A stretch of DNA of 64,000 bases from a phage: NCBI GenBank assembly GCA_029742005.1, contig GCA_029742005.1_4113.1. One strand, written 5' to 3'. Positions 11,984 to 34,084 of this stretch are shown in pieces; the first letter of the stretch is position 1; every line of letters begins with the position of its first letter. The notes under the pieces are model-generated. The model saw nothing but the letters and a program-made list of their open reading frames with translations. It was not told the origin of the DNA and did not search any database. A program made the position numbers and the translations under genes.

Positions 11984-12208
11984 CAAAAAAGAATAAAAAA
12001 GGGATTGACTCCGGTCAGTCCCTTTGCTATTATATACGCATAGACAAAAACTAGCCCACTGGGTGCATAAGTGTATCCAAAATATATAGTTAATAACGGT
12101 GAGTAACTATCTGCTGGTGGAGTGAAAACTATTAATAAAAAAAGTATTGACAAAGTATATCAGTACTGCGATAATGTATCTCGTAGGGCGGCAATGGTGC
12201 GACGGCCC
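11984..12208 (+). repeat. intergenic cassette copy 4 (most diverged)
   Basis: GGGATTGACTCCGGTCAGTCCC hairpin, core GCCCACTGGGTGCATAAGTGTATC, Chi 12113-12120, TTGACA/GATAAT promoter, GC-rich stem-loop. Confidence 0.55.
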
Positions 12209-12650: not shown

Positions 12651-13052
12651 ATGACCTTCTCAATCACTTCCTTCGCTGACGTTTTAGTACTGGCTCGGAC
12701 TTTTGGTAAAGATGCACTGGAGTACGCTGTAAGTAATGGCACTATCCAACCGGAACAGTGCCGCATCATTGGAAACTGCAAACGTTGGGCGGTATCCAAT
12801 ACTATTGCACTGGAAAACTTCAACGATGGCAACAATGAATATTCTGTTGATGCAGTATTCGAAGCCGTAGACCTGGGCGGTATCTATAACACTAACCTGA
12901 ATGATGTGCGTATCGTTCGCACTGGCTTCGGTGCTTATGATGTATCTATCCGTGAAGCTATGGACAAGGGATACATTAGCAAGGACCAGTTAGCTTACAT
13001 CATGCAGCAAACTAAGGAGCGTAACGAAGCCCGTACTATCTTAGGGTTGTAA
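12651..13052 (+). CDS. hypothetical protein
   Basis: track ORF 12588..13052 starts in the promoter; start moved to ATG 12651 behind RBS AAGGAG. Confidence 0.7.
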   Translation: MTFSITSFADVLVLARTFGKDALEYAVSNGTIQPEQCRIIGNCKRWAVSNTIALENFNDGNNEYSVDAVFEAVDLGGIYNTNLNDVRIVRTGFGAYDVSIREAMDKGYISKDQLAYIMQQTKERNEARTILGL

Positions 13053-13120
13053 GCGTTACACATCACCAAACATCATAGGCCGCCTTGTAGCGGCCTTAAC
13101 TATATCAGGAGTACATACAC

Positions 13121-13330
13121 ATGATCTATACAGTATATAGCGTTCTAGGTACTATTGCAGGCGTACACGATAACGTCGATAGTGCTATGCGTACAGTACT
13201 GCAACAGGTTCCACTAAAGCCTAAGACCATTAAGCAGATGACAGCACGATTAACCAGGGCGACGGCTGGCGTGGAAGTATGGCAGGACTATGGGGATACA
13301 CAGATAATCGTAAGCGTAACGAAGGATTAA
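13121..13330 (+). CDS. hypothetical protein
   Basis: ORF track; RBS CAGGAG. Confidence 0.6.
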   Translation: MIYTVYSVLGTIAGVHDNVDSAMRTVLQQVPLKPKTIKQMTARLTRATAGVEVWQDYGDTQIIVSVTKD

Positions 13331-13561
13331 TGCGTAAAAGGATTTAGTACTGAATCAAAAAAAAGTCAAGGCATTTTTTTCATGCGTCGAAAAAAAACTT
13401 AACCAGTACACTATCACGCATGAAATAATTTTGACCAGTGATTATATCTCTTGCCCTAAAGGGCGGGTAATGTCTTAGCGAGCATATTGGAGTTCTTGGG
13501 TAGGACAAAATTATTTCTTGTGCTATAATTATATCGAATGTAATCATAGAAAGGAGTCCCT

Positions 13562-13759
13562 ATGCGTATTTTAACTGAAGAAGAGCACAACCACACACTC
13601 ATATCCAACATGGCATATATCCTACATATGTCACATATCCGTGGTATTGCATATAAGCGTGAATTGGTTATGAAACTTTTCATAGGAACTAACTATCAAG
13701 AAAAGTATATCGAACTATACTTACAAGAATTACGAAGGGACATAAAAGGAAGACGATGA
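13562..13759 (+). CDS. fam1 small protein (first array member)
   Basis: ORF track; RBS AAAGGAG; motif FIGTNYQEKY. Confidence 0.65.
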   Translation: MRILTEEEHNHTLISNMAYILHMSHIRGIAYKRELVMKLFIGTNYQEKYIELYLQELRRDIKGRR

Positions 13760-13956
13760 AAATGCGTATTTTAAATAAAGAAGATTATCAAGAACTGTTA
13801 TGTAAAAACATGGTAAAGATTTATAACACAGACACAAACTTAGAACGAATTGAGTTATACCTTTTGATTACATTGGGAACAAGCTATCAGAGAAGATGGG
13901 TGATTCAATATATGGATGCATTGAAAAATGAAATATTGTCCACGAGGAAACAATGA
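13756..13956 (+). CDS. fam1 small protein
   Basis: ORF track; ATGA overlap; motif LGTSYQRRW. Confidence 0.6.
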   Translation: MKMRILNKEDYQELLCKNMVKIYNTDTNLERIELYLLITLGTSYQRRWVIQYMDALKNEILSTRKQ

Positions 13957-14162
13957 AAACTATAACACGAACCCAATCATACGGTCTTATCTTGAGATAC
14001 ATGGACTTAATGTTGGATATCAGCAAAGACCTTCCTAAAACTGCAATTGAAGTTACAAGAGCAGAGATCCGCATGTTGGCTGTACTGAACACAAACCATC
14101 AGGAAGAGTATGTTGATGATTGGATTAATTTTTTAATTCAAGATATAAAGAGTAAACTATGA
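13953..14162 (+). CDS. fam1 small protein
   Basis: ORF track; ATGA overlap; motif LNTNHQEEY. Confidence 0.6.
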   Translation: MKTITRTQSYGLILRYMDLMLDISKDLPKTAIEVTRAEIRMLAVLNTNHQEEYVDDWINFLIQDIKSKL

Positions 14163-14371
14163 TTTTTTTAACACCAGAAGAATATAAGATACGTTTTGTT
14201 TCTGTCCAGAATAAAATCTTAATTATATACAATTCAAATGCAGACCTTAACTTATCAAGGGTATTAGAAAAAGATTTACTTATGGGTGCATTTTTGGATA
14301 CAGACTTTCAGGAGTATTATGTAGGGGAATACTTAATTGCACTCAAGAATTATATTAAGAGTAAACTATGA
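14159..14371 (+). CDS. fam1 small protein
   Basis: ORF track; motif FLDTDFQEYY; close paralog of next gene. Confidence 0.6.
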   Translation: MIFLTPEEYKIRFVSVQNKILIIYNSNADLNLSRVLEKDLLMGAFLDTDFQEYYVGEYLIALKNYIKSKL

Positions 14372-14583
14372 ATATCATTGCAAACTCAAATCAATATACC
14401 GAACGCGTCGCTGCAAGACAACTTGAAATTCTCATAGTATACGAAGAGACTTCTGATTTAAACTTAGCCGAGGTATTGGAAAATGATATACTATTGGGTG
14501 CATTCCTCGGCACAGACTATCAGGAGCACTTCTTGAATGAGTATATAATTGCACTCCAGAAATACATTAAGAGCAAACTATGA
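14368..14583 (+). CDS. fam1 small protein
   Basis: ORF track; motif FLGTDYQEHF. Confidence 0.6.
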   Translation: MNIIANSNQYTERVAARQLEILIVYEETSDLNLAEVLENDILLGAFLGTDYQEHFLNEYIIALQKYIKSKL

Positions 14584-14816
14584 AACATTTAAGTAACTCC
14601 GAGAAGAATAAAATTATCGTTGCTGCAATAAACAAATATTTTACACTTCCTCACACAGAAGGTTTATGTGTAAGAGAACACAGGATAAACACCACCGATA
14701 TACGCATGATGGCTGTACTGGGGACTAACTTTCAGAAGGAGTATGTTGATGCACACATTACCGCACTGATGAACTTTATAATGGGAAAGGTAAATGAAAC
14801 ACTTAACACTAGATGA
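14580..14816 (+). CDS. fam1 small protein
   Basis: ORF track; motif LGTNFQKEY. Confidence 0.6.
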   Translation: MKHLSNSEKNKIIVAAINKYFTLPHTEGLCVREHRINTTDIRMMAVLGTNFQKEYVDAHITALMNFIMGKVNETLNTR

Positions 14817-15051
14817 ATATGAAACTATAGTCCGTAAACTAACCCCTATAGCAAGGATAGTCTACGATGACCCCAGCCTTACATGGAACCAAATGCGAGC
14901 TAAAGTTAATGAGCTATGGTTGCTGTACTTTATGGGAACGCAATATCAAGATAAGTTTTGCACAGAATATGTCGAACAATTAATGAATGTTATACAGGAT
15001 AAACTAGATGATTATTGGCTCGCAAAACATGAAGACTTTATCAGGAGTTGA
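14794..15051 (+). CDS. fam1 small protein
   Basis: ORF track; motif MGTQYQDKF. Confidence 0.6.
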   Translation: MKHLTLDEYETIVRKLTPIARIVYDDPSLTWNQMRAKVNELWLLYFMGTQYQDKFCTEYVEQLMNVIQDKLDDYWLAKHEDFIRS

Positions 15052-15280
15052 GTATCAAACTGCCCTATTCTCTTTAATCCATACCCTTAGAAAAAACAAT
15101 GCCTTACATGGTGCACCTGAAGTGGATGTTATCAACGGTGAACTTTATCTGATGAAATTCATTGGAACAAACTATCAAGATCTGTTCATTCAACGATACC
15201 TATCAGCATTAAGAAACCAAATCCAATATAAAACCATCAAGGCCAAAAAAGAATGGAATAAACAATGCGACACAGACTAA
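15029..15280 (+). CDS. fam1 small protein
   Basis: track frame 15008..15280; start placed at ATG 15029 by paralog alignment; motif IGTNYQDLF. Confidence 0.55.
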   Translation: MKTLSGVEYQTALFSLIHTLRKNNALHGAPEVDVINGELYLMKFIGTNYQDLFIQRYLSALRNQIQYKTIKAKKEWNKQCDTD

Positions 15281-15516
15281 ATCACAAAATGTATTGTAAA
15301 CTATTGCAGACACTGGCACAGAAACACTATGACACGGTATCTGAAATATTACCCTATGATATCATGCGTTTACTTCACTGTGAGGCCGAGATGCTTGTAC
15401 TGATGACAGGCACAGATAAAAAAGCAATTGCCAAATCAATAGATATGTTCATCGAAGCACAATGTCAACACATTAGAACCGAGATATGGAGGCGAGAGAA
15501 TGATAACCCTAAATGA
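15265..15516 (+). CDS. fam1-like small protein (divergent motif)
   Basis: ORF track; motif degenerated to LMTGTDKKAI. Confidence 0.5.
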   Translation: MRHRLNHKMYCKLLQTLAQKHYDTVSEILPYDIMRLLHCEAEMLVLMTGTDKKAIAKSIDMFIEAQCQHIRTEIWRRENDNPK

Positions 15517-15715
15517 GTATCAGTATCATTGGAGGTTACAAGCTATAAGAAGGAAAGTTGTTAGTATTTCTTTAGACAAGTCTATTGCACAAGAGGACAA
15601 ATGTGTTATAATAGCTGAAATGAAGTTGGGTGTTTTCGTAGGGACAAACTATCAAAACATCTACACTGACGTATTGTTAAGTGTCTTACGTAACAAGGTG
15701 ATATCAAAAGAATGA
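15500..15715 (+). CDS. fam1 small protein
   Basis: ORF track; RBS GGAGG; motif FVGTNYQNIY. Confidence 0.65.
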   Translation: MITLNEYQYHWRLQAIRRKVVSISLDKSIAQEDKCVIIAEMKLGVFVGTNYQNIYTDVLLSVLRNKVISKE

Positions 15716-15929
15716 GAAAATTACAAGGCTTTGAATACATCAGGCTCCTGAAAACATGTGGCAGCAGAAGGAGAATGATATCAAGCGATAAGAGCATCTC
15801 TATTGACCTGAAGCACGCAATGAAAGCTGAACTCTATGTATGAGCACTATTGGGGACAAACTATCAACAAATGTATGTAGACCTATGGATTGATGCATTA
15901 GTCAAGGAGGTCCAAAGTAAATGCAAATG
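15712..15929 (+). pseudogene. fam1 pseudogene (in-frame TGA before the motif)
   Basis: ATG 15712 opens a fam1-like frame; TGA at 15841-15843 just before LLGTNYQQMY, which continues in frame to 15929. Confidence 0.55.
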
Positions 15930-16139
15930 ATTAATTTAAGTAAAGATGAATTTTATGTTCTACTGGCGAAAACTTATTCATTACGCAAGGCCGTTTATGA
16001 TAGTCACATTATTGAACCAACAAAGAAGTTGATTTTAGTATCTGAGATAAAGATGCTTTCAGTCTTAGGAACAAACTACCAAGAGAATGCTGTACTGTTG
16101 TTAATTGATGCCCTCAAGAGAGAGATACAAAGTAAATGA
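15921..16139 (+). CDS. fam1 small protein
   Basis: ORF track; motif LGTNYQENA. Confidence 0.6.
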   Translation: MQMINLSKDEFYVLLAKTYSLRKAVYDSHIIEPTKKLILVSEIKMLSVLGTNYQENAVLLLIDALKREIQSK

Positions 16140-16375
16140 TTCATTTATCTTACCATGATTATCAAAAACGTTTAAATGCATCAAGGGATATAAGAATTCA
16201 AATCTTCAATAACAAAAAATTGAAACCTGACACCAGAAGAATCAAAATAATCGAAGCAGAGTTATGCAACTTCCTGGGGACGAACTATCAGGCAGGTAAG
16301 GTAAAAAACTATCTTAGAGAACTCATGAATTGTATCGAAAATAAATGCGATGCTTTGGAGGATAAAAATGATTAA
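16136..16375 (+). CDS. fam1 small protein
   Basis: ORF track; motif FLGTNYQAGK. Confidence 0.6.
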   Translation: MIHLSYHDYQKRLNASRDIRIQIFNNKKLKPDTRRIKIIEAELCNFLGTNYQAGKVKNYLRELMNCIENKCDALEDKND

Positions 16376-16625
16376 TTTAAATTCTGATGAATATCATGAA
16401 CGCATGGCTAAAATCTCAACTAAACGAAATGAAATCTATCACAACCCAGAAATTCAACACAGTAAGAAAATGATTATGATGCGTGAGTTAAAGTTGGGTG
16501 TATTCTTAGGAACAAACTATCAAGAACCAGAGGTCCAACGCGTATTAAATGAATTACTAATGGAAATCAGAGGTAAGCTTTACTTTCATCAAATGACCCA
16601 ACCACTGAGGTGTACTGTGAAATGA
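16368..16625 (+). CDS. fam1 small protein
   Basis: track frame 16350..16625; start moved to ATG 16368 behind RBS GGAGG; motif FLGTNYQEPE. Confidence 0.6.
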   Translation: MINLNSDEYHERMAKISTKRNEIYHNPEIQHSKKMIMMRELKLGVFLGTNYQEPEVQRVLNELLMEIRGKLYFHQMTQPLRCTVK

Positions 16626-16837
16626 TCAACATCACATTACAAGAAAGATTCATCCGAATCAACTATGCAATTTCCAAATTAGATGCTACAATAGGATTTC
16701 AAAGTCTACCGTTCAAAACCAGAATGATATTAGAGTGCGAAGCCAGGTTAGGTGTACTGTTAGGGACGCAACACCAACAACGATATGTGGAAATCTGGAT
16801 TGATCTTTTAACCCAAAATGCACATGAGAGAATGTAA
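16622..16837 (+). CDS. fam1 small protein
   Basis: track frame 16610..16837; start moved to ATG 16622 (RBS GAGG); motif LLGTQHQQRY. Confidence 0.6.
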   Translation: MINITLQERFIRINYAISKLDATIGFQSLPFKTRMILECEARLGVLLGTQHQQRYVEIWIDLLTQNAHERM

Positions 16838-17068
16838 ATGCAAAATGAAATGATATACTTAACACATGATGAATTTCAAGAGAAGATGTTAAAAGCCAAT
16901 AACATTACTCTTAAGTTCGTTCCAAATCAATCAATATATGAAATGTCTGCGAATGTATTGTTTGAGAAGCTACCATACGTTCTTGGAACTGATAAACAAG
17001 AATTTATGGTTCAAAATATGATTGAGCATCTTGCAATGAGTATTATGGAAAAAGTAAATGCAAAATGA
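16838..17068 (+). CDS. fam1 small protein (MQNEM subgroup)
   Basis: ORF track; motif VLGTDKQEFM; N-terminus MQNEMIYLT shared with next two genes. Confidence 0.6.
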   Translation: MQNEMIYLTHDEFQEKMLKANNITLKFVPNQSIYEMSANVLFEKLPYVLGTDKQEFMVQNMIEHLAMSIMEKVNAK

Positions 17069-17318
17069 AATGAAATACTTAACATATAATGAATACGTCG
17101 AGAGATTAGTTAGTGCCAAGAGATATGCCAATCAACTTCCTAATGATCCAAACCAAACCCCAGAGGAAAAGAATGCGGAAGCTCTATTCCAAGCACTACC
17201 ATACCTTCTTGGAACTGATAGGCAGGAGTATCACGTTGAACGTATAATTAAATCTCTTAAAATCACTATTAAGGAAAAAGTAAATGCAAAAGGAAATGAT
17301 ATACTTAACAGACGATGA
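17058..17318 (+). CDS. fam1 small protein (MQNEM subgroup)
   Basis: ORF track; motif LLGTDRQEYH. Confidence 0.6.
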   Translation: MQNEMKYLTYNEYVERLVSAKRYANQLPNDPNQTPEEKNAEALFQALPYLLGTDRQEYHVERIIKSLKITIKEKVNAKGNDILNRR

Positions 17319-17541
17319 GTTAAAAGAACGATTAATTAAATCCAGAAAACTTACAAATCAACTTCCAAACGACACAAACAAGTCACCTGCCGAAAGGAGT
17401 GCAGAAGTTTTATACATTCAACTCATGTACTTTCTTGGAACTGACAGACAAGAGTATTACATTGAAAGTATGCTTCGATATCTTAAATTCTCTATAAAGG
17501 AAAAGATACATGCTCAAGAATTTAAAAATCCTAACAGCTAA
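17284..17541 (+). CDS. fam1 small protein (MQKEM subgroup)
   Basis: ORF track; motif FLGTDRQEYY. Confidence 0.6.
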   Translation: MQKEMIYLTDDELKERLIKSRKLTNQLPNDTNKSPAERSAEVLYIQLMYFLGTDRQEYYIESMLRYLKFSIKEKIHAQEFKNPNS

Positions 17542-17767
17542 TGAATATCATAAGATTGTAATGGAAACTAATAGTGCTTACGCTAAAAAATCAAACCCAA
17601 AGTATATACTGGAACACACATTTGAAGAACGTCAATTAGCTCTAGTTGAAGCAAAACTTCTTGCACTATTAGGAACAAACTATCAGGAAGAATACAATAG
17701 AAAACTAATATACCTTTTAACTAAACACATCAGGAAAAGAAAAAAGCATGAAACACTTGACAGATGA
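17510..17767 (+). CDS. fam1 small protein
   Basis: ORF track; RBS AAGGAAAAG; motif LLGTNYQEEY. Confidence 0.6.
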   Translation: MLKNLKILTANEYHKIVMETNSAYAKKSNPKYILEHTFEERQLALVEAKLLALLGTNYQEEYNRKLIYLLTKHIRKRKKHETLDR

Positions 17768-17978
17768 TGAACATGGGCTTATAGTAATGGATGTAATCAA
17801 CATCGAATTCAAAAAGTTGATACGCTACCGTTGTTATGAAGATAAGCAACTCGTTCTAGCAGAACAGAAGTTGTTTCGACTCTTAAACACAAACTACCAA
17901 GCACAATACGAAGAATCGTATATGTACCTTTTGGCGAGGAAAGCAAAAAGAGATTATGAAAATTTTAAGCCACGATAA
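17748..17978 (+). CDS. fam1 small protein
   Basis: ORF track; motif LLNTNYQAQY. Confidence 0.6.
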   Translation: MKHLTDDEHGLIVMDVINIEFKKLIRYRCYEDKQLVLAEQKLFRLLNTNYQAQYEESYMYLLARKAKRDYENFKPR

Positions 17979-18171
17979 ACAAACAGAATTGTTAATCTTT
18001 AATACAAGTAAATTCTTAAACATAACATTGTCTGATATAGATGAGGATGAAAAAGAGTTACTTAGAGCAGATTTAAGAGTTCTTTTATATATTGGAACTA
18101 ACTTCCAAGAGCAATTCGTTGAGGACTACATCGATGAACTTAAAGAATCTGTACTGAGAACATGCAAATGA
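17956..18171 (+). CDS. fam1 small protein
   Basis: ORF track; motif YIGTNFQEQF. Confidence 0.6.
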   Translation: MKILSHDKQTELLIFNTSKFLNITLSDIDEDEKELLRADLRVLLYIGTNFQEQFVEDYIDELKESVLRTCK

Positions 18172-18413
18172 AAATCCTTTCACCAAGTGAATACCACGAA
18201 CTATTAAGTAGTTTAATTCTAAAATTGTATATAGCAAAGACCACAGATTTACCAGATGAAGAAAAAAATATTCTAATGAGTGAAATCTATGTTAATTCTA
18301 CCCTAGGGACTAACTATCAAGAATGTAATATTAATGATTACATCAAAGAACTAAAAAGGTTTATCCAATGCAAATGCGAATCATTACCGGAGAAGAATAC
18401 CGAACAATCATAA
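18162..18413 (+). CDS. fam1 small protein
   Basis: ORF track; motif TLGTNYQECN; close paralog of next gene. Confidence 0.6.
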   Translation: MQMKILSPSEYHELLSSLILKLYIAKTTDLPDEEKNILMSEIYVNSTLGTNYQECNINDYIKELKRFIQCKCESLPEKNTEQS

Positions 18414-18610
18414 ATGGACTGTTTTTGAAGTTATTTGCCATTAACACATCAAAACTACCAGATACGGATAAAATTATTAAGTTAAATGAAATCTACGTTC
18501 AAGCTACTCTAGGAACTAACTATCAAGAAGCCAATGTGTATAATTACATTAATACACTTAAAAGGGTAATACAATTAAAATGCACAGACAGCACATACAC
18601 AAACCCCTAG
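18368..18610 (+). CDS. fam1 small protein
   Basis: ORF track; motif TLGTNYQEAN. Confidence 0.6.
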   Translation: MQMRIITGEEYRTIINGLFLKLFAINTSKLPDTDKIIKLNEIYVQATLGTNYQEANVYNYINTLKRVIQLKCTDSTYTNP

Positions 18611-18810
18611 GAACAGCAGAATACATTGAACTAATGGCAGCAAACTTCTCATCCTTTCAGAAACTGATGCAAGAATCAAATAATGATTTAGAATATCATA
18701 TCAAAAGTTCAGATTTAAGATTGTTACTCACTCTAGGAACAGACAGTCAGTACAAATTCGTACAGGAGCATATTAGAGCACTTTTAAATGGCATCAGGAA
18801 TAAACTATGA
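18580..18810 (+). CDS. fam1 small protein
   Basis: ORF track; motif TLGTDSQYKF. Confidence 0.55.
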   Translation: MHRQHIHKPLGTAEYIELMAANFSSFQKLMQESNNDLEYHIKSSDLRLLLTLGTDSQYKFVQEHIRALLNGIRNKL

Positions 18811-19022
18811 AGGTAATATCAAACCAAGAGTACTTGGCACTATTCAGAAAAAATAGTCAAGAATTTCTGAATCTTGATACAAGAACTGATATAAGTGAAC
18901 TTGAAAAAAATCTTTTGCGTTCAGAGATGATAGTACTGACACTCTTAGGAACACAGCACCAAGAGAGAACTGTTAATTCACACATAGGGATTCTTATACA
19001 GATAGTACAGGAAAAGATATGA
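18807..19022 (+). CDS. fam1 small protein
   Basis: ORF track; motif LLGTQHQERT. Confidence 0.6.
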   Translation: MKVISNQEYLALFRKNSQEFLNLDTRTDISELEKNLLRSEMIVLTLLGTQHQERTVNSHIGILIQIVQEKI

Positions 19023-19240
19023 GAATCATAACACAACAAGATATTCTTAAGTTCACAAGGGTTCATGCATCTGAATTTGATGCTATATTATCAAAAAGTT
19101 ACAACAACCCTTATACAGAAGATGTACACTACAGTGAATTATGGGTGTATATACTTTTAGGTACAGATCATCAAGAGCAAGCAGTACAGAAGTATTTGTT
19201 AGCGTTAAGTACTGCTACTGCTAATGGAGTATGTGTTTAA
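19019..19240 (+). CDS. fam1 small protein
   Basis: ORF track; motif LLGTDHQEQA. Confidence 0.6.
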   Translation: MRIITQQDILKFTRVHASEFDAILSKSYNNPYTEDVHYSELWVYILLGTDHQEQAVQKYLLALSTATANGVCV

Positions 19241-19241
19241 T

Positions 19242-19484
19242 ATGAAAGTACTGACAGAATTAGAAATGTATCATAGATTTAATAAGTACTATCATTTACT
19301 TAAACCTATACAGAGGATTAAGTGTCCCTTTGTAGTGAAACAGGTATTAATTTATGAGCATAAGTTATTTGTATCATTAGGTACGAATGAACAAGAGTAT
19401 TATTTGAAGTTGTACTTAATTACTTTAATTGAATTGATTAATTACAAAACTCAGAAAGCGAAGAAATCTAAAAATGAAAACTAA
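19242..19484 (+). CDS. fam1 small protein
   Basis: track frame 19224..19484; start moved to ATG 19242 behind RBS GGAG; motif SLGTNEQEYY. Confidence 0.6.
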   Translation: MKVLTELEMYHRFNKYYHLLKPIQRIKCPFVVKQVLIYEHKLFVSLGTNEQEYYLKLYLITLIELINYKTQKAKKSKNEN

Positions 19485-19815
19485 AATTCAACTCAGGGTA
19501 TACATATCGTATGAAAATATATACGTTAAAAGTAGTCTATGTAAAGATGTAATGGACTACAAAGGTAAACCATTCACAGTTACTTACAGTTTAACAGGAG
19601 GTTTATATATCTCTTTTGCTAATTACGAAAATAATATGTACGAACACATTGACATTGAAGATTTAAGTACTTTATCACCAGAGGAATACTTCCAGGAATC
19701 ATTAGTATGGGATTTAGAGTTCCCTATGCCATTAGTACATAAGATGATAGTACTAATGAAAGAATCTAAACAGGAGCCTAATAGTGCTTATGAAGAACAC
19801 ATTATTGAGTATTAA
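19474..19815 (+). CDS. fam2 protein (first member)
   Basis: ORF track; motif PEEYFQESLVWD. Confidence 0.6.
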   Translation: MKTKIQLRVYISYENIYVKSSLCKDVMDYKGKPFTVTYSLTGGLYISFANYENNMYEHIDIEDLSTLSPEEYFQESLVWDLEFPMPLVHKMIVLMKESKQEPNSAYEEHIIEY

Positions 19816-19827
19816 GAGTACTGATAT

Positions 19828-20043
19828 ATGAAAAGATTATCATACAAAGATTACAGTAAACTTATCAGTACTTTACAACCAGAAATTAGAAGAATTAATT
19901 ATCTTCCTATATCTAACGAAGAACGTGTAGTACTGAAAAATGAGTTAATCTTAAAACGCACAGTAGGTACTAACTATCAAGATAATAGTGTTCGCGATTT
20001 AATTAGAGGGTTAATGATCACAATAAAGGCCAAGTGCTATTGA
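19828..20043 (+). CDS. fam1 small protein
   Basis: ORF track; motif TVGTNYQDNS. Confidence 0.6.
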   Translation: MKRLSYKDYSKLISTLQPEIRRINYLPISNEERVVLKNELILKRTVGTNYQDNSVRDLIRGLMITIKAKCY

Positions 20044-20107
20044 CAGTACTTGACGGAGCTTTTCATTACTGATATAGTGCATCAACGTTAATCATAGGGT
20101 ACAGATT

Positions 20108-20353
20108 ATGTTAAAATTTTTAAATTTCCTTATCGTCTTGTGTATTGTTCTTGGAATTGCACCGTTTGTATTAGCGTATCTGGATTCAGATGAAATGCAG
20201 AAGATGAATTGCACAAAGACAGGACAGAGTAGAGAAGAGACGGTTATGATGCCTGTAACGGTTATTGTGAATAACATACCAATTACGAACATGATTCCTA
20301 CCCTAACGACAACGTACCAGTACTCTTGTGCTGACGGAGAGAGGTGGAGATGA
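20108..20353 (+). CDS. putative small membrane protein
   Basis: ORF track; hydrophobic N-terminal helix FLNFLIVLCIVLGIAPFVLAYL; promoter-like TTGACA about 60 nt upstream. Confidence 0.45.
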   Translation: MLKFLNFLIVLCIVLGIAPFVLAYLDSDEMQKMNCTKTGQSREETVMMPVTVIVNNIPITNMIPTLTTTYQYSCADGERWR

Positions 20354-20661
20354 AATTTAATATAGCAAAAACATCGAGTATATGTATTTTTGGTTATTCC
20401 TATGAATTGGGTGATATTGACATTCTATTGTACAAAACGAATGGTGTTATGCATTTCAAGTACCAGGATGAAGAGGCAGACAATTATCTTTTACCTAATT
20501 TAGTACAAATGCAGGAAGAGGAATTATTCCAGTACAGCTTAATATACGACATTGATATTTGCACGATGCCAGTATTAATTAGTATTCAAAAAGTGATGCT
20601 CGATATGTATGATAAGCTAATACAAGGTATGTCAGGGAGGATCATTGAAATCGATATATAA
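20350..20661 (+). CDS. fam2 protein
   Basis: track frame 20344..20661 (GTG); start moved to ATG 20350 behind RBS GGTGGAG; motif EEELFQYSLIYD. Confidence 0.6.
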   Translation: MKFNIAKTSSICIFGYSYELGDIDILLYKTNGVMHFKYQDEEADNYLLPNLVQMQEEELFQYSLIYDIDICTMPVLISIQKVMLDMYDKLIQGMSGRIIEIDI

Positions 20662-20857
20662 GAATTTACCTAATGAATATTTGTTGAAGTACAAAGAGTT
20701 TATTAAAGATGTATATGTAGATCCTTTTAATATCAAATTTGCAGAGTTCGAAGTATCATTTTATCTAGGGACAATAGTACAGGACCAATACGTTGATAAT
20801 CTAATAAGGTGTTTGAAAAAGGAGATACAATGCAGACCCAAATGTACAAAAAAATAA
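20645..20857 (+). CDS. fam1-like small protein (TTG start per track)
   Basis: ORF track with non-ATG start; motif YLGTIVQDQY. Confidence 0.45.
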   Translation: MKSIYKNLPNEYLLKYKEFIKDVYVDPFNIKFAEFEVSFYLGTIVQDQYVDNLIRCLKKEIQCRPKCTKK

Positions 20858-21093
20858 ACTGTTATTTGTATGCATCAAAGTACAGGGATTTTTGTTTACG
20901 AGGGGGAGAGGAAGATTTTGCTCTGAGATTATCGGAATTTAATATGTTATTTTATCTTGGTACATCAGTACAAGAAGAAATGGTACAGAAATTTATCAAT
21001 CACCTTGTACAAAAAATTAATATGCAAATTTTGATGCTTGAGTTACAGAATGAGATAAACAAATATGAACCCAACAATAGTACAGGATCTTAA
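20830..21093 (+). CDS. fam1-like small protein
   Basis: track frame 20809..21093; start moved to ATG 20830 behind RBS AAGGAGA; motif YLGTSVQEEM. Confidence 0.5.
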   Translation: MQTQMYKKINCYLYASKYRDFCLRGGEEDFALRLSEFNMLFYLGTSVQEEMVQKFINHLVQKINMQILMLELQNEINKYEPNNSTGS

Positions 21094-21454
21094 ACAAGTA
21101 ATATTCCTTTTGAATACAAGAAGTGAAATGTATACAGAGTTTAAAGAGATTAATGCATTTTATCAGAATTTTGTAATTCAAGAGTTCAGTGATTTAATTA
21201 CAGATGCATTATTTGAATTATCGGAAAAATACAAAGGAACAGAGTTCAGTGTTAAAAATGTATTACGTTCTTTATCAACGCGTATAATAAAATTAGATCA
21301 TTTCAAATTTGAAAATAAAGATTTATTCAGTCACAATCCAAGTACAGCTTTATATTTTATTCCTGATTCAGACAAAAATCATCCTATTCATTACGGATGG
21401 ATTTTGTCGTACATAGTACAAGGAAAGGAGTATCCTATTAAATGGAACGATTAG
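21065..21454 (+). CDS. hypothetical protein
   Basis: ORF track; no clear family motif. Confidence 0.5.
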   Translation: MNPTIVQDLKQVIFLLNTRSEMYTEFKEINAFYQNFVIQEFSDLITDALFELSEKYKGTEFSVKNVLRSLSTRIIKLDHFKFENKDLFSHNPSTALYFIPDSDKNHPIHYGWILSYIVQGKEYPIKWND

Positions 21455-21602
21455 GGCGATTAGATTATTACACAATTAATACAAATTATTTGTTGCGTAA
21501 TATAAAATCCGATTACAAAATATGGATAAAGAACAGAGATAGTATGTGTTATGAATTTTATTTAGATTATGCCATCAAACGCTTTTTAAGAGAAGAACAT
21601 TA

Positions 21603-21802: not shown

Positions 21803-22348
21803 ATGAATGAGATAGAATTATTAGCACACAAGATTAGTACAATAATGCTTATCCTAAATAACAACCATCCTATATCGCAGATAGATGGAATCCTGAGTCA
21901 GAGGACAGGTGGTAGTTTATATTTGACATTAACAGAGGTTATCGCAAGGAATTACATTGATATTGAAATCGAGAACAGTGATGCATCAGGAAAGGTTGAT
22001 GTAGGTGCATTAATCAGTTCAAATCCAGTATCAGCATCCCCATTGACCAAAGGTGTTAGTACAGGATTCGAAGGGTATTTGTGGTACAATACCAATGATG
22101 ATTATTTTATATATCAGCATTCCAATACAAATTATGATGAAGACAAATTTCAGTTCATAGACCCTTATGATGAAGCTGAAGTATTTCAAAAATCATTAAT
22201 CACAAAACCGCATGAGATGATGTATCTAATGTTATTCAGTACAATGCATTTGAATCCATTAATTAAAGGTTTAAAATTTTATATTCAATTGAAATTAGTC
22301 CATGTAGTTTATGATTTATTAATGCAAGGATATAGTTATGAAGTATAA
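21803..22348 (+). CDS. fam2 protein
   Basis: ORF track; motif EAEVFQKSLITK. Confidence 0.6.
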   Translation: MNEIELLAHKISTIMLILNNNHPISQIDGILSQRTGGSLYLTLTEVIARNYIDIEIENSDASGKVDVGALISSNPVSASPLTKGVSTGFEGYLWYNTNDDYFIYQHSNTNYDEDKFQFIDPYDEAEVFQKSLITKPHEMMYLMLFSTMHLNPLIKGLKFYIQLKLVHVVYDLLMQGYSYEV

Positions 22349-22655
22349 AATGCTTAATACAGTATCAGGGATATATGTAGAATTAGAATCCGATTATTCA
22401 GATGGATGGAATTTTATTAAACGACACGATAGAAATACATGGTACATGGCACATTTGGATAATGACGTAATAATAGATAATTTTGTCGATTTTAATACAT
22501 TATCAGAAGAAGAATTTTTCCAAATGCAATTTGTGCTTGATACAAATGGATTTGATTTGCTATTATTAAGGAATATTCAGAAAGCGGTTAATGAATTCAT
22601 AATCCAAAATAATTCAGGTAAAATGGGGATGTTCCATGATCTGGAAGTACAATGA
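22338..22655 (+). CDS. fam2 protein
   Basis: ORF track; motif EEEFFQMQFVLD. Confidence 0.6.
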   Translation: MKYKMLNTVSGIYVELESDYSDGWNFIKRHDRNTWYMAHLDNDVIIDNFVDFNTLSEEEFFQMQFVLDTNGFDLLLLRNIQKAVNEFIIQNNSGKMGMFHDLEVQ

Positions 22656-23193
22656 AATTCAGTACACCTACGCTAATGCAATCCTTATGGGACAAAAGTT
22701 AGCTTGTATTGTTGCAGCCTTATATAATGCACAGAAAGATTACAAGCGTCATATCCACAAATGTATTGGTATTATTCCATCGAAGTACAATACATATATT
22801 GCGTGCACGAGTCATTTTGATAAACGATTCAATACACCTGATACCCCAAATGCCAGTAGTGTTATTGGTCTTTTGGATTTCGCACCTGGTGCTGTTATTG
22901 GAAAGAATGATTTAGAGTACACATGGTATAATAAAAATGCCCCGTTAGTAATGGGAAAATATGATACAGAAACGAACAAAACAATAGAGTACAATACATA
23001 TAAATCAGAGGAAGAATTTTTCCAAGGTTCATTGCTTGTACCAGTGCGTTTGTTGTTTTATAATGTCCTTATTAGTACAGTACACAATAGTCCATTACAC
23101 AAGAATCACAAAATTAATTTCAATTTTTGTGCTTATGCGATTGATGGTGTGTATGAGTGTTTAATGGAGGTATTGAGTTATGAAGCTGAATAA
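22636..23193 (+). CDS. fam2 protein
   Basis: ORF track; RBS GGGGA; motif EEEFFQGSLLVP. Confidence 0.6.
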   Translation: MIWKYNEIQYTYANAILMGQKLACIVAALYNAQKDYKRHIHKCIGIIPSKYNTYIACTSHFDKRFNTPDTPNASSVIGLLDFAPGAVIGKNDLEYTWYNKNAPLVMGKYDTETNKTIEYNTYKSEEEFFQGSLLVPVRLLFYNVLISTVHNSPLHKNHKINFNFCAYAIDGVYECLMEVLSYEAE

Positions 23194-23521
23194 TACATTT
23201 GATATTAATAAGTTAAGAGAATGGTTTTATAGTATTGAAATTGAAGCCATCCCGTATCATAGATATGAACAATATAATTTAACCAGTATTGATATCCGTG
23301 AGTTGTACGCGTATTATCAAAGTGCATTAGAGATGCATAAGTTATTTTTGAGTACAGATTTTGTTATAAATTACAATTTTGAGGAATTTAATAATTATAA
23401 TTTAGTACAGAAATATGTAGTAGCAAAGTACATGTACCTTCAAGGAATTACAAGTAATTTGGAATTCAATACAGTCCTGGCTTTAGTTGAGGTAATTTTA
23501 TGCAGTACATGTATGATTTAG
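23180..23521 (+). CDS. hypothetical protein (possible divergent fam2)
   Basis: ORF track; motif not clear. Confidence 0.5.
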   Translation: MKLNNTFDINKLREWFYSIEIEAIPYHRYEQYNLTSIDIRELYAYYQSALEMHKLFLSTDFVINYNFEEFNNYNLVQKYVVAKYMYLQGITSNLEFNTVLALVEVILCSTCMI

Positions 23522-23895
23522 AGTTTAGTTTAGATGCTGCCTTTAAATTTGTTCACAAGATAGAAACAATATACAGTACATTATGTGCAATACAATCAGT
23601 ATCATCTGAGTTTGATGTTGGTGAAAAATATCAGGTATGGAATAATACATTTCTAAACAAAGAACGTTGCTCTACGGGGTTTAATATTTTAACATTTAAT
23701 CCCAGCAATTGTTACCCAGAGAAGCATGAACGTTATCCGAATGACGACATGTGGTTTGATTACACAAAAGATGGTGATATGTCATCCCTTGTAGTTCCTG
23801 ATGATTTTAATGCCGAAGATTTAACGGAAGAGTGGTGGTTTCAACAGAATTTAGTTCACGATGATATTGATTTATTTTTTTTATGTAGTATTTAA
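23500..23895 (+). CDS. fam2 protein
   Basis: ORF track; RBS GAGG; motif EEWWFQQNLVHDD. Confidence 0.6.
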   Translation: MQYMYDLEFSLDAAFKFVHKIETIYSTLCAIQSVSSEFDVGEKYQVWNNTFLNKERCSTGFNILTFNPSNCYPEKHERYPNDDMWFDYTKDGDMSSLVVPDDFNAEDLTEEWWFQQNLVHDDIDLFFLCSI

Positions 23896-24089: not shown

Positions 24090-24602
24090 GTGAGTTTCAT
24101 AATCCCAAGTACATACGAAGATGCATCAAGTGCAGTTCATAAGATTCATTATATTTTTAATTTAATTATTAGATCTGCAAAAATTAAAATGTATGCACCT
24201 CTTGTGGAATACGATAAAAATGAGGAAATTTTTGTTAGCACAGACCAAATTATTTTTCCATATTTCAATGAAGATAGATTGTGGTTCATGCATTTAGCTG
24301 CATTACAAAAATATAAAATGTCAATTCGTAATAATTTGGATATACCGTTATATCATCCTGATATTGGAGAGGATGAATATTTTCAGTACAGTACAGTACA
24401 CCGCCATGAAGATATCTTTGTTGCTATGCTTATTGCTAAATTGAATACCGTTGATTTGGAGCAGTACAAATACAATAATAAATCATGTAAGATCATAATC
24501 CCTGCATTCATAGCTCTTTATGATTATGTGGTGCATAACAAAAAAGATGATACATATGCTTTCAATGAAGAGTATTTGAATTTTTTTAAGGAGAACATAT
24601 GA
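24090..24602 (+). CDS. fam2 protein (GTG start)
   Basis: track ORF 23928..24602 runs through an internal TTGACA promoter; start placed at GTG 24090 behind RBS AAAGGAG; motif EDEYFQYSTVH. Confidence 0.5.
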   Translation: MSFIIPSTYEDASSAVHKIHYIFNLIIRSAKIKMYAPLVEYDKNEEIFVSTDQIIFPYFNEDRLWFMHLAALQKYKMSIRNNLDIPLYHPDIGEDEYFQYSTVHRHEDIFVAMLIAKLNTVDLEQYKYNNKSCKIIIPAFIALYDYVVHNKKDDTYAFNEEYLNFFKENI

Positions 24603-25126
24603 GCAGTGAAGTGCTGAAATCAATGACATTCAATGAAATTGGTGCATTTAAAGATAAGATCATTGATTGCATTGAATACATGATTTGTAGTAATATCGAA
24701 AGTATTGAGATATTTAACAAGACAAATCGCTCTTACCATATGATGTACATTGCAAACAATAATGGTATCATTCCATTTATTTCGGATAGTACAATATGGT
24801 ACGCATGTGATACGAAAAAAACCACAATAGGTTTACATTCATTTGAGACACATTATGATCTAATTATTCCTGAACATTGTATGCAAGAAGAAGAATATTT
24901 TCAAATGCAATGTATACATTCACCATTAGTGTTGTTTAGTTTATATATTATACCTTATATCACCAAATGTGTTCATGAGAATAAAGCTCCGTGGAATCAT
25001 GAATTTGTATCGTTGAAGTTATTGTATAATGTATTAGTAGAATATTATGATTACAGGCACAATGGTACAATCAGTGATGTATGGGATTTTGAATCGCTAA
25101 GGGTGAAAACATACACAGGTGAATGA
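24599..25126 (+). CDS. fam2 protein
   Basis: ORF track; ATGA overlap; motif EEEYFQMQCIH. Confidence 0.6.
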   Translation: MSSEVLKSMTFNEIGAFKDKIIDCIEYMICSNIESIEIFNKTNRSYHMMYIANNNGIIPFISDSTIWYACDTKKTTIGLHSFETHYDLIIPEHCMQEEEYFQMQCIHSPLVLFSLYIIPYITKCVHENKAPWNHEFVSLKLLYNVLVEYYDYRHNGTISDVWDFESLRVKTYTGE

Positions 25127-32636: not shown

Positions 32637-33169
32637 TGAAAGTTAACATCAATGACTTTGATGCATTACAAGATTTATCAAAAAAGATTCGTATCATCGT
32701 ACCAGTACTAAAAAAATGCAGTACTGGTTTAATTGATCCTAGTACTGTTGTTAATGAGAAGTACAATTTTCATCGTGTATTACAGGGTACAGGTGCATTT
32801 CAGAAGTGTGATGTACGTGAGAAACACGTAATTGATACATCATTGTTTTCTATTGGTGCACCTGTGTCGAATAATTCTATTTTCTTGGATAACGCAGGAA
32901 ATATTCAACAATTAACATTTAAGAAAAGGAAAAAGAACAATAACATTGGTGTGTACGCGATGAAGTGGGGGAAACCTGATTTGAAGCGTGAAATTCACAT
33001 CCCTAAGTACAATTACAATGCATTTGACGAACAGTGTTTTCAACTATCGTGTACTGACCCTGACTATGCAATCATTCAGTTCTATATGGAATTGCAGATA
33101 GCATTTAATAGTAATTTGTATATTAACTTATTGGCGATGAACATCGATGAAGTATTCAAAAACATTTAA
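32633..33169 (+). CDS. fam2-like protein
   Basis: ORF track; motif FDEQCFQLSCTDPD. Confidence 0.55.
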   Translation: MMKVNINDFDALQDLSKKIRIIVPVLKKCSTGLIDPSTVVNEKYNFHRVLQGTGAFQKCDVREKHVIDTSLFSIGAPVSNNSIFLDNAGNIQQLTFKKRKKNNNIGVYAMKWGKPDLKREIHIPKYNYNAFDEQCFQLSCTDPDYAIIQFYMELQIAFNSNLYINLLAMNIDEVFKNI

Positions 33170-33365
33170 TCGAATTGAATACATGAGAACTGTGAGTGCA
33201 GTGTGGGATATATGGTTCACTACTAAACCAAAAATGGATTACCATGACTTTAAGCTATTGTTCTTCATTGGCTCTAACAAACAGGATGTTGCAATGAAGG
33301 GTTATATTCAGCACTTACAGGAACTAATACAGAAGAGGGTTAATGAAAATAATAGACCAAGATGA
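33147..33365 (+). CDS. fam1-like small protein inside the fam2 array
   Basis: ORF track; motif FIGSNKQDVA. Confidence 0.5.
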   Translation: MKYSKTFNRIEYMRTVSAVWDIWFTTKPKMDYHDFKLLFFIGSNKQDVAMKGYIQHLQELIQKRVNENNRPR

Positions 33366-33534
33366 TATTGCTAAACTATTCAATATATATTCTACTAGAA
33401 TGATGCAAACAGACTCATATAGTACTGAATTCAAAGAGTTGAAAGTACTGATGTACTTGGGAACCCAATATCAGGAACAAGTTATTTTGGAATATATTAA
33501 TTCGTTGAAGAAGGATATCCGTTATGTACGATGA
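33343..33534 (+). CDS. fam1 small protein inside the fam2 array
   Basis: ORF track; RBS AGAGGG; motif YLGTQYQEQV. Confidence 0.55.
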   Translation: MKIIDQDDIAKLFNIYSTRMMQTDSYSTEFKELKVLMYLGTQYQEQVILEYINSLKKDIRYVR

Positions 33535-34084
33535 TTTAGATCTTGCGTTTGAACGTATGGTAATTTTAATGCAATGTGCAGAAATGCATGAAACAATCCG
33601 TCGCACCAAAGGGATTGAATATACAAGTAAACTATTCTCATACGAAAGTCGTCGAGGGATGGATCATTTTTACTGCACTGATTGTTCAAAGTTTTCAGTA
33701 CTGAAATATTATCATCCTACTGTTTCCAATAATAGTTTAATATCCACATATGACGGTGATCTGTTTAGTGTAATGTATGACACATTACATCCATCAATTT
33801 CAATCTATAAAGATTGCGATAGTAGTTTATCGTATATAATTGAAGATTACTTATCTCCTAATACTGAAGAGAATATTTTTCAGAACAGTGTGTTGCATGA
33901 TGAATTAAGTATAAAATGCATCTATATGTTCAATAAGTTAAAAGAGTACGCCGATAATAATTACTTCATTGATGATTTAGCGGTATTGTCTGTTTCCGTT
34001 TTTAATACAAATGATATTGATATGAAATACTATAATGAGATTTGTAAAGTACATCATATGTATAAGGAACTATTATGTCAATAA
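33524..34084 (+). CDS. fam2 protein
   Basis: ORF track; motif EENIFQNSVLHDE. Confidence 0.6.
   Translation: MYDDLDLAFERMVILMQCAEMHETIRRTKGIEYTSKLFSYESRRGMDHFYCTDCSKFSVLKYYHPTVSNNSLISTYDGDLFSVMYDTLHPSISIYKDCDSSLSYIIEDYLSPNTEENIFQNSVLHDELSIKCIYMFNKLKEYADNNYFIDDLAVLSVSVFNTNDIDMKYYNEICKVHHMYKELLCQ

Follow-up and report, generated by a model that had tools for sequence, protein, structure and literature searches.

Analysis of the window (the whole stretch of phage DNA analysed here, 64,000 nucleotides) revealed an in-frame TGA in one member of a large family of small paralogous genes, hereafter the focal gene. Overall, our analysis suggests that the TGA at 15841-15843 is very probably a genuine, ordinary and very recent nonsense allele, read as an ordinary terminator. 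The lesion is a single GGA to TGA transversion of very recent date, and it is without secondary decay. The focal gene represents a textbook nonsense allele, and it is best annotated as a disrupted gene and not as a recoding candidate. Feature coordinates are shown in Table 1.

Table 1. Features of the focal gene and of the paralogue array, in window positions
Feature	Position	Strand	Basis
Run of 28 contiguous same-strand paralogous genes of 65-90 aa, including the focal slot	13562-19484	+	ORFs, alignment and HMM
Further family copies	19828-20043, 20645-20857, 20809-21093, 33147-33365, 33343-33534		Alignment
Shine-Dalgarno-like AAGGTGA, 10 nt 5' of ATG 15712, intact; putative function	15695-15701	+	Sequence
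Full 72-codon focal gene, slot 11 of the array, broken at codon 44	15712-15930	+	Translation, alignment of 18 relatives, PHROG 4148
Truncated ORF still open, 43 aa and stop	15712-15843	+	ORF list
Premature TGA (opal) at codon 44; mutated base T15841; GGA>TGA, Gly>stop	15841-15843	+	Sequence and relatives
Orphaned C-terminal 28 codons, ALLGTNYQQMYVDLWIDALVKEVQSKCK, with LGTNYQ at 15850-15867	15844-15927	+	Identical to intact alleles
TTG-started remnant ORF, 26 aa	15850-15930	+	ORF list
Strong Shine-Dalgarno AAGGAGG before ATG 15921 of the next paralogue, inside the 3' part of the focal gene that the TGA cuts off; putative function	15904-15910	+	Sequence
ORFs of a second apparent family	19474-19815, 20344-20661, 33524-34084, ~37756 and many ORFs of 140-200 aa between 21 and 48 kb		Shared motif

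The focal gene and its premature stop codon

The sequence and its translation confirm the earlier note in that the frame opened at ATG 15712 is interrupted by the TGA and that the same frame stays open beyond it through ALLGTNYQ. The start of the feature given there also stands, whereas its end is 15930 and not 15929, the natural stop codon TGA occupying 15928-15930. The conserved motif is in frame as described; it does not follow the TGA directly, as LGTNYQ starts two codons past it. Translation of the gene gives MRKLQGFEYIRLLKTCGSRRRMISSDKSISIDLKHAMKAELYV, the premature stop, ALLGTNYQQMYVDLWIDALVKEVQSKCK and the natural stop. The base context read directly is a15840 T15841 G15842 A15843 (gta TGA g), and the tryptic peptide across codon 44 is AELYV-X-ALLGTNYQQMYVDLWIDALVK, where X is the residue of codon 44. 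The start ATG overlaps the stop codon of the upstream paralogue (ATGA, 15712-15715).

The stop-tolerant translation of 72 codons matched the HMM of the other family copies of the window over its full length (51.6 bits). With glycine restored at codon 44 the product matched PHROG 4148 (E = 6e-21, 75.4 bits), residues 1-72 being aligned with positions 1-72 of the 74 in the profile. Because of these full-length matches to the family HMM and to PHROG 4148, the focal frame is no chance open frame. PHROG 4148 membership calls for an uninterrupted ORF, and with a TGA at codon 44 the focal gene is a disrupted member. The nearly invariant residues of the family (G, T, Q and L) all lie downstream of the focal stop, and the focal slot retains them in frame as the G-T-x-x-Q turn and the downstream leucine. 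Positional orthologues of the focal gene are phAPEC6 gp480c, 121Q gp329 and Turkey3 XMR00973, and the orthologous CDS is annotated in relatives at positions 463-681 of the extracted loci.

We propose that a single G>T transversion turned the GGA codon of Gly44 into TGA in one member of this four-helix family of ~32 copies. Ribosomes starting at ATG 15712 would then release a 43-residue fragment, which by homology to the AF2 model of a neighbouring paralogue keeps helices 1 and 2 and most of helix 3 and is without the conserved GT..Q turn and the last helix, helix 4. On this model the fragment is very unlikely to fold, because every nearly invariant residue and helix 4 are lost, and the focal copy would thereby be a null or near-null allele. 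The phage would tolerate the loss because a single family copy is probably dispensable or redundant, at least under the propagation conditions of the stock. The downstream paralogue probably initiates independently and would still be expressed from its own ribosome-binding site; the polar effect is probably minor because that site is a strong AAGGAGG. Re-initiation within the orphaned part was considered and rejected: the only in-frame starts, TTG 15850 and ATG 15871, have no Shine-Dalgarno sequence, their products would be of 26 or 19 aa, and no relative is so arranged.

Codon 44 in relatives

The orthologous slot was extracted from 18 GenBank relatives and aligned codon by codon. It is flanked by the same two neighbours in all 18 relatives and is slot 11 or 12 in seven arrays. 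An uninterrupted 72-codon orthologue was found in 17 of the 18 relatives; the remaining one, CMSTMSU, has a frameshift farther upstream, and its record is flagged UNVERIFIED. Among the 17 intact relatives, codon 44 is a glycine codon (GGT/GGG) in 14 and the leucine codon TTA in three (A4, CRJP21 and 121Q).

Closer genomes were found via exact-protein look-ups of neighbouring genes. A total of seven near-identical assemblies were identified, namely BIEC01000090, CATSTR010000001 and CATSHR010000002 (assembly ids of these three non-Logan genomes: GCA_005400705.1, GCA_958319075.1 and GCA_958315955.1) and the Logan assemblies DRR569831, DRR159911, SRR11615244 and ERR3531495. Around the focal gene they are 99.9-100% identical to the window, and all seven have GGA at codon 44. 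Within the 219-nt slot, the sole difference between the window and these assemblies is T in place of G at 15841. The same base is the sole difference over 5-6 kb from two of the near-identical assemblies (L043 and L044) and the sole difference in 5.2 kb from contig ERR3531495_275. Comparison with CATSTR010000001 revealed only four nucleotide differences in 13000-21500, and all 30 array proteins of that genome are the same as those of the window save the focal one. Since the close relatives all have G at 15841, G is ancestral and T is derived and private. These results bear out the view of the focal gene as a fresh pseudogene, the TGA being one private G>T away from the GGA of the seven assemblies above, with which the gene is otherwise base-identical.

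Pooled over 55 pairs of orthologues, pN/pS was 0.39 for the whole gene; for codons 1-43 it was 0.45 and for codons 45-72 it was 0.27, so that each half is coding and under constraint. The focal gene was functional before the mutation, judging from this purifying selection on both halves in relatives. The value for codons 1-43 also argues against a non-coding upstream segment, which had been named as a way in which the observation might fail. The focal gene thus has a disabling lesion, shows no further decay and has unbroken, constrained counterparts in close relatives, which is the picture given by a unitary pseudogene or null allele of recent origin. Spontaneous opal mutants of non-essential phage genes give the same picture, as do unitary pseudogenes that arose recently: one base change makes an in-frame stop in such a gene, secondary decay is absent, and the genome is otherwise syntenic with and near-identical to those of relatives. 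Nothing substantive separates the focal gene from them; it is one of ~32 paralogues, and for this reason its loss is likely buffered.

Some stretches of the window are less similar to the nearest genomes. At ~22290-22660 and 24180-24850 the differences are concentrated in short and highly divergent patches (~80-100 differences/kb) amid almost identical stretches; such a mosaic is typical of allele exchange by recombination between Asteriusviruses that circulate together. The Logan contigs DRR159911_45, ERR3531495_275 and SRR21990203_34, from three independent assemblies, are all 39,445-39,486 bp long. ERR3531495_275 ends at window position 12007 and SRR21990203_34, by offset, near 12024, which suggests a repeat at ~12007-12024 (and at ~51470 if the genomes are colinear) that breaks short-read assemblies.

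The paralogue array

The window is of an Asteriusvirus-type jumbo coliphage, and the array matches 36 phage records, all of them Escherichia or Salmonella jumbo phages of 310-385 kb, with Turkey3 as the best match (94%). With 31 intact copies and the focal one, the family comprises ~32 copies in the window. Most array neighbours are joined by ATGA or by overlaps of a few codons, and the array genes share a (L)GT(N/D/Q)xQ motif. Alignment found the other copies to be 19-41% identical to the reference copy, and the family is considered old because of this low identity. Glycine, leucine or cysteine is tolerated among paralogues at the position of codon 44.

The family is PHROG 4148, of unknown function. 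No Pfam family was found; two paralogues gave sub-threshold noise only (DUF1374, E = 0.012; RepD-like_N, E = 0.024). The AF2 model of the neighbouring paralogue (pLDDT 97) has four helices, H8-17, H19-27, H33-47 and H54-71, and this predicted fold had no match in the PDB and no match outside the family in BFVD. A profile search of 5.8 billion proteins returned unnamed proteins only, the long contigs among them being of ~350 kb and labelled E. coli, Escherichia or Salmonella phage. Only Asteriusvirus-like genomes yielded members of the family, the focal locus had no match in complete E. coli genomes and PLSDB plasmids, and no published description of the family was found in the literature searched. 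The array is more interesting than the TGA itself: it has ~32 diverged copies, its small fold is predicted with confidence, and no relatives were found.

Scanning of 13000-21500 revealed 39 promoter-like sites against 41.8 expected and three terminator-like sites against 3.0 expected. Since both occur at chance frequency, the array is consistent with one long polycistronic unit. A single plausible promoter lies in the gap 5' of the first array copy, at 13502-13529.

Comparison of the array between eight genomes revealed 25-30 copies per genome in the compared stretches. Among ~233 copies examined, internal stops occur in two, one in the focal slot of the window and one in 121Q. The birth-and-death turnover proposed in the earlier note finds little in its favour here, since the old paralogues are largely kept as positional orthologues throughout the genus and only these two copies carry internal stops. 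Turnover of the array is slow, and the focal TGA is an isolated recent event with no sign of rapid cycling. The lesion of 121Q (KM507819.1; L032 1928-2137) is a private nonsense change, AAA>TAA, at codon 15 of the orthologue of slot 3 (13953-14162), and GenBank annotates only the 49-aa downstream remnant of that gene, gp321. As this lesion is independent and produced TAA, the knock-outs are sporadic, affect single copies and occur irrespective of which stop codon arises. The focal lesion would further amount to natural evidence that at least one copy of this large uncharacterised array is dispensable for propagation of Asteriusvirus.

Other changes of copy number and arrangement were also observed. 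An extra family copy is present beside the focal slot in fEgEco12, and P0001, a 154-aa ORF of an ENA metagenome contig, fuses the orthologues of slots 19 and 20 (17510-17767 and 17748-17978) into one two-domain ORF. Lineage-specific expansion in a jumbo phage has been described for Bacillus phage G, which has ~35 zinc-ribbon copies (PMC7824862). The array resembles expansions of this type in having dozens of tandem, same-strand, small and diverged paralogues in a jumbo phage, individual copies of which are occasionally lost, fused or truncated. It differs from the zinc ribbons of phage G in its fold, predicted to be a four-helix bundle with a GT..Q turn and without metal ligands. A second apparent paralogous family, with a C-terminal-proximal (E)E(L/Y)FQ(Y/E)SL(V/I) motif, is interleaved with the small-gene array and follows it.

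Artefact, recoding and selection as alternatives to ordinary mutation

The base call was compared with Logan contig SRR21990203_34, a re-assembly from raw reads, which carries T at 15841. This contig is 100.000% identical to the window over 14599-35126 (20,528 bp) and 26336-46812 (20,477 bp), 32 kb in total, with no differences. SRR21990203 may be the read set behind the record of the window; in that case the consensus call is confirmed and the sample is not biologically independent. Because the re-assembly reproduces T, a glitch of the depositor's assembly is unlikely. Exact-product look-up of the 43-aa fragment returned no record, because the collection called no gene at the focal slot in SRR21990203_34.

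The two nearest reference genomes have 63 ORFs of 55 aa or more across 20 kb, and only two of these are disrupted in the window, the focal gene and a 168-aa gene. The latter (plus strand, 23500-23895 in the window) has T8 at 23875-23882 where BIEC, CATSTR, CATSHR and DRR159911 have T7. As a result of this private frameshift the product has 131 aa, and the C-terminal part that it lacks can still be read in the +1 frame. T8 is also present in SRR21990203_34 and could be a slipped-strand mutation or a homopolymer sequencing error. Taken together, T at 15841 and T8 at 23875 constitute a strain marker linking the genome of the window to run SRR21990203.

TGA is in normal use as a terminator in the window. 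Of the plus-strand ORFs with 60 aa or more it ends 67 of 159, and of the array ORFs 18 of 28 (16 in ATGA overlaps); TGAG, the four-base context of the focal stop, ends 18 ordinary ORFs. No in-frame TGA besides that of the focal gene was found in the 63 reference ORFs, and there is no sign of TGA reassignment in the genome. RNA folding of 15820-15930 against shuffled sequences (z = +0.78) detected no stimulatory structure, and as the segment folds no better than its shuffles it has no SECIS-like hairpin. Cysteine never appeared at codon 44 of the 17 intact orthologues. The 64-kb window contains no tRNA genes. The tRNA cluster of the relative fEgEco12, located according to PMC13070987, comprises Ser-UGA, Ser-GCU, Met, Asn and two Thr tRNAs and a tRNA-like gene with anticodon UCU. 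A tRNA with a UCA anticodon was found neither in the window nor in this cluster. A partial match to the tRNA-Sec model at the edge of L034 was rejected, as it is the tRNA-like gene with UCU, which lacks a D-arm and lies next to tRNA-Ser(UGA); neither of the two decodes UGA.

The main alternative, itself unlikely, is that the population carries GGA and that T at 15841 is an error of sequencing or consensus calling, or else a minority or laboratory variant that became fixed in the consensus. A single private G>T transversion is a signature of oxidative-damage artefacts arising during library preparation, the T8/T7 change at 23875 is of a kind that sequencing errors classically produce and lifts the prior probability of errors a little, and a read-level error is possible if the same reads underlie the record of the window and SRR21990203_34. 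However, the re-assembly gives T with no break or bubble at the site, and this second, identical assembly from raw reads makes the sequencing error named in the earlier note as a possible refutation unlikely. Consensus-level substitution errors are rare at normal coverage; only two genes are disrupted across 20 kb and 63 reference ORFs, and the window equals L038 across 26-46 kb, which is not the mark of a noisy assembly. Programmed recoding, in which UGA would be read through by near-cognate tRNA-Trp, a phage suppressor tRNA or selenocysteine insertion to give a functional 72-aa protein, is extremely improbable. UGA is the leakiest stop codon in E. coli, coliphage Q-beta uses UGA readthrough, and the 28 codons past the focal TGA are perfectly intact and in frame; their state is explained by the youth of the mutation, there being no other change in the gene. 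Programmed sites are conserved, whereas the focal TGA is present in none of the 17 intact GenBank orthologues and none of the seven near-identical assemblies, and the equivalent lesion of 121Q is TAA. The readthrough or recoding suggested earlier is also disfavoured by the ordinary use of TGA and TGAG as terminators, many of them in ATGA overlaps, by the lack of any further in-frame TGA in the reference ORFs, by the lack of RNA structure and by orthologues having glycine or leucine and not cysteine. Asteriusviruses do encode their own tRNAs, including one of UE-S1 given as 'Undet' (PMC12805682), but no tRNA is present in the window and no UCA anticodon in the fEgEco12 cluster.

Comparison with known UGA recoding systems agrees with this. 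The coat protein of Q-beta and its readthrough product A1 share with the focal gene a coliphage setting and an in-frame UGA after which the frame stays open and looks coding. The UGA of Q-beta is conserved and ends a complete functional coat protein, to which readthrough adds an extension, whereas the focal stop splits one small domain, is private to one phage and stands in a normal-termination context with no conserved signal. Bacterial selenocysteine sites also have a UGA inside a conserved ORF; unlike them, the focal UGA has no hairpin, the homologous residue is glycine or leucine instead of cysteine, and neither the window nor the tRNA cluster of the relative yielded a tRNA-Sec or UCA tRNA. 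Some basal UGA readthrough is given by host tRNA-Trp in E. coli, and by analogy a trace of full-length protein could conceivably be made from the focal gene in this way.

An ordinary nonsense mutation agrees with the frequency at which stops arise. Of the single-base changes possible in the coding sequence of the array, 6.1% create a stop, and in the focal gene a single change is enough to do so at 30 of the 72 codons. Comparison with the closest non-identical genome, CATSHR010000002, revealed 18 substitutions, about half of them synonymous, and three indels over 20.5 kb. Provided that selection has yet to act, mutation alone should give roughly one nonsense event, and the single nonsense SNP needs no special explanation because 6.1% of substitutions create a stop and 18 were seen. 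It is highly unlikely that the knock-out was itself selected, for example because the protein triggers abortive infection or another defence in the propagation host and null alleles escape. Two of the 21 differences from CATSHR010000002 break ORFs, both in small accessory genes, and host conflict is a frequent role of large, diversified families of early phage genes. However, one nonsense change among 18 substitutions is what mutation alone predicts at that rate, the focal slot has no repeat knock-out among 25 other genomes, and the family has no Pfam or structural match. If the focal knock-out were an escape allele, it would point to the function of the whole 32-copy family. Also distinctly unlikely is that the knock-out is not neutral in either of two ways, being a selected escape from host defence or, through basal UGA readthrough inserting tryptophan, a low-dose hypomorph in place of a null.

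The tRNA-like gene of fEgEco12 was also analysed (PP777464.1 290986-291064; L035 4987-5065). It directly follows tRNA-Ser(UGA) and has an 8-bp acceptor stem, no D-arm, the anticodon loop CUUCUAA (UCU, Arg), a long variable arm and an encoded CCA. It scored 32.6 bits on the Rfam tRNA model, was missed by ARAGORN and is probably the counterpart of the 'Undet' tRNA of UE-S1.
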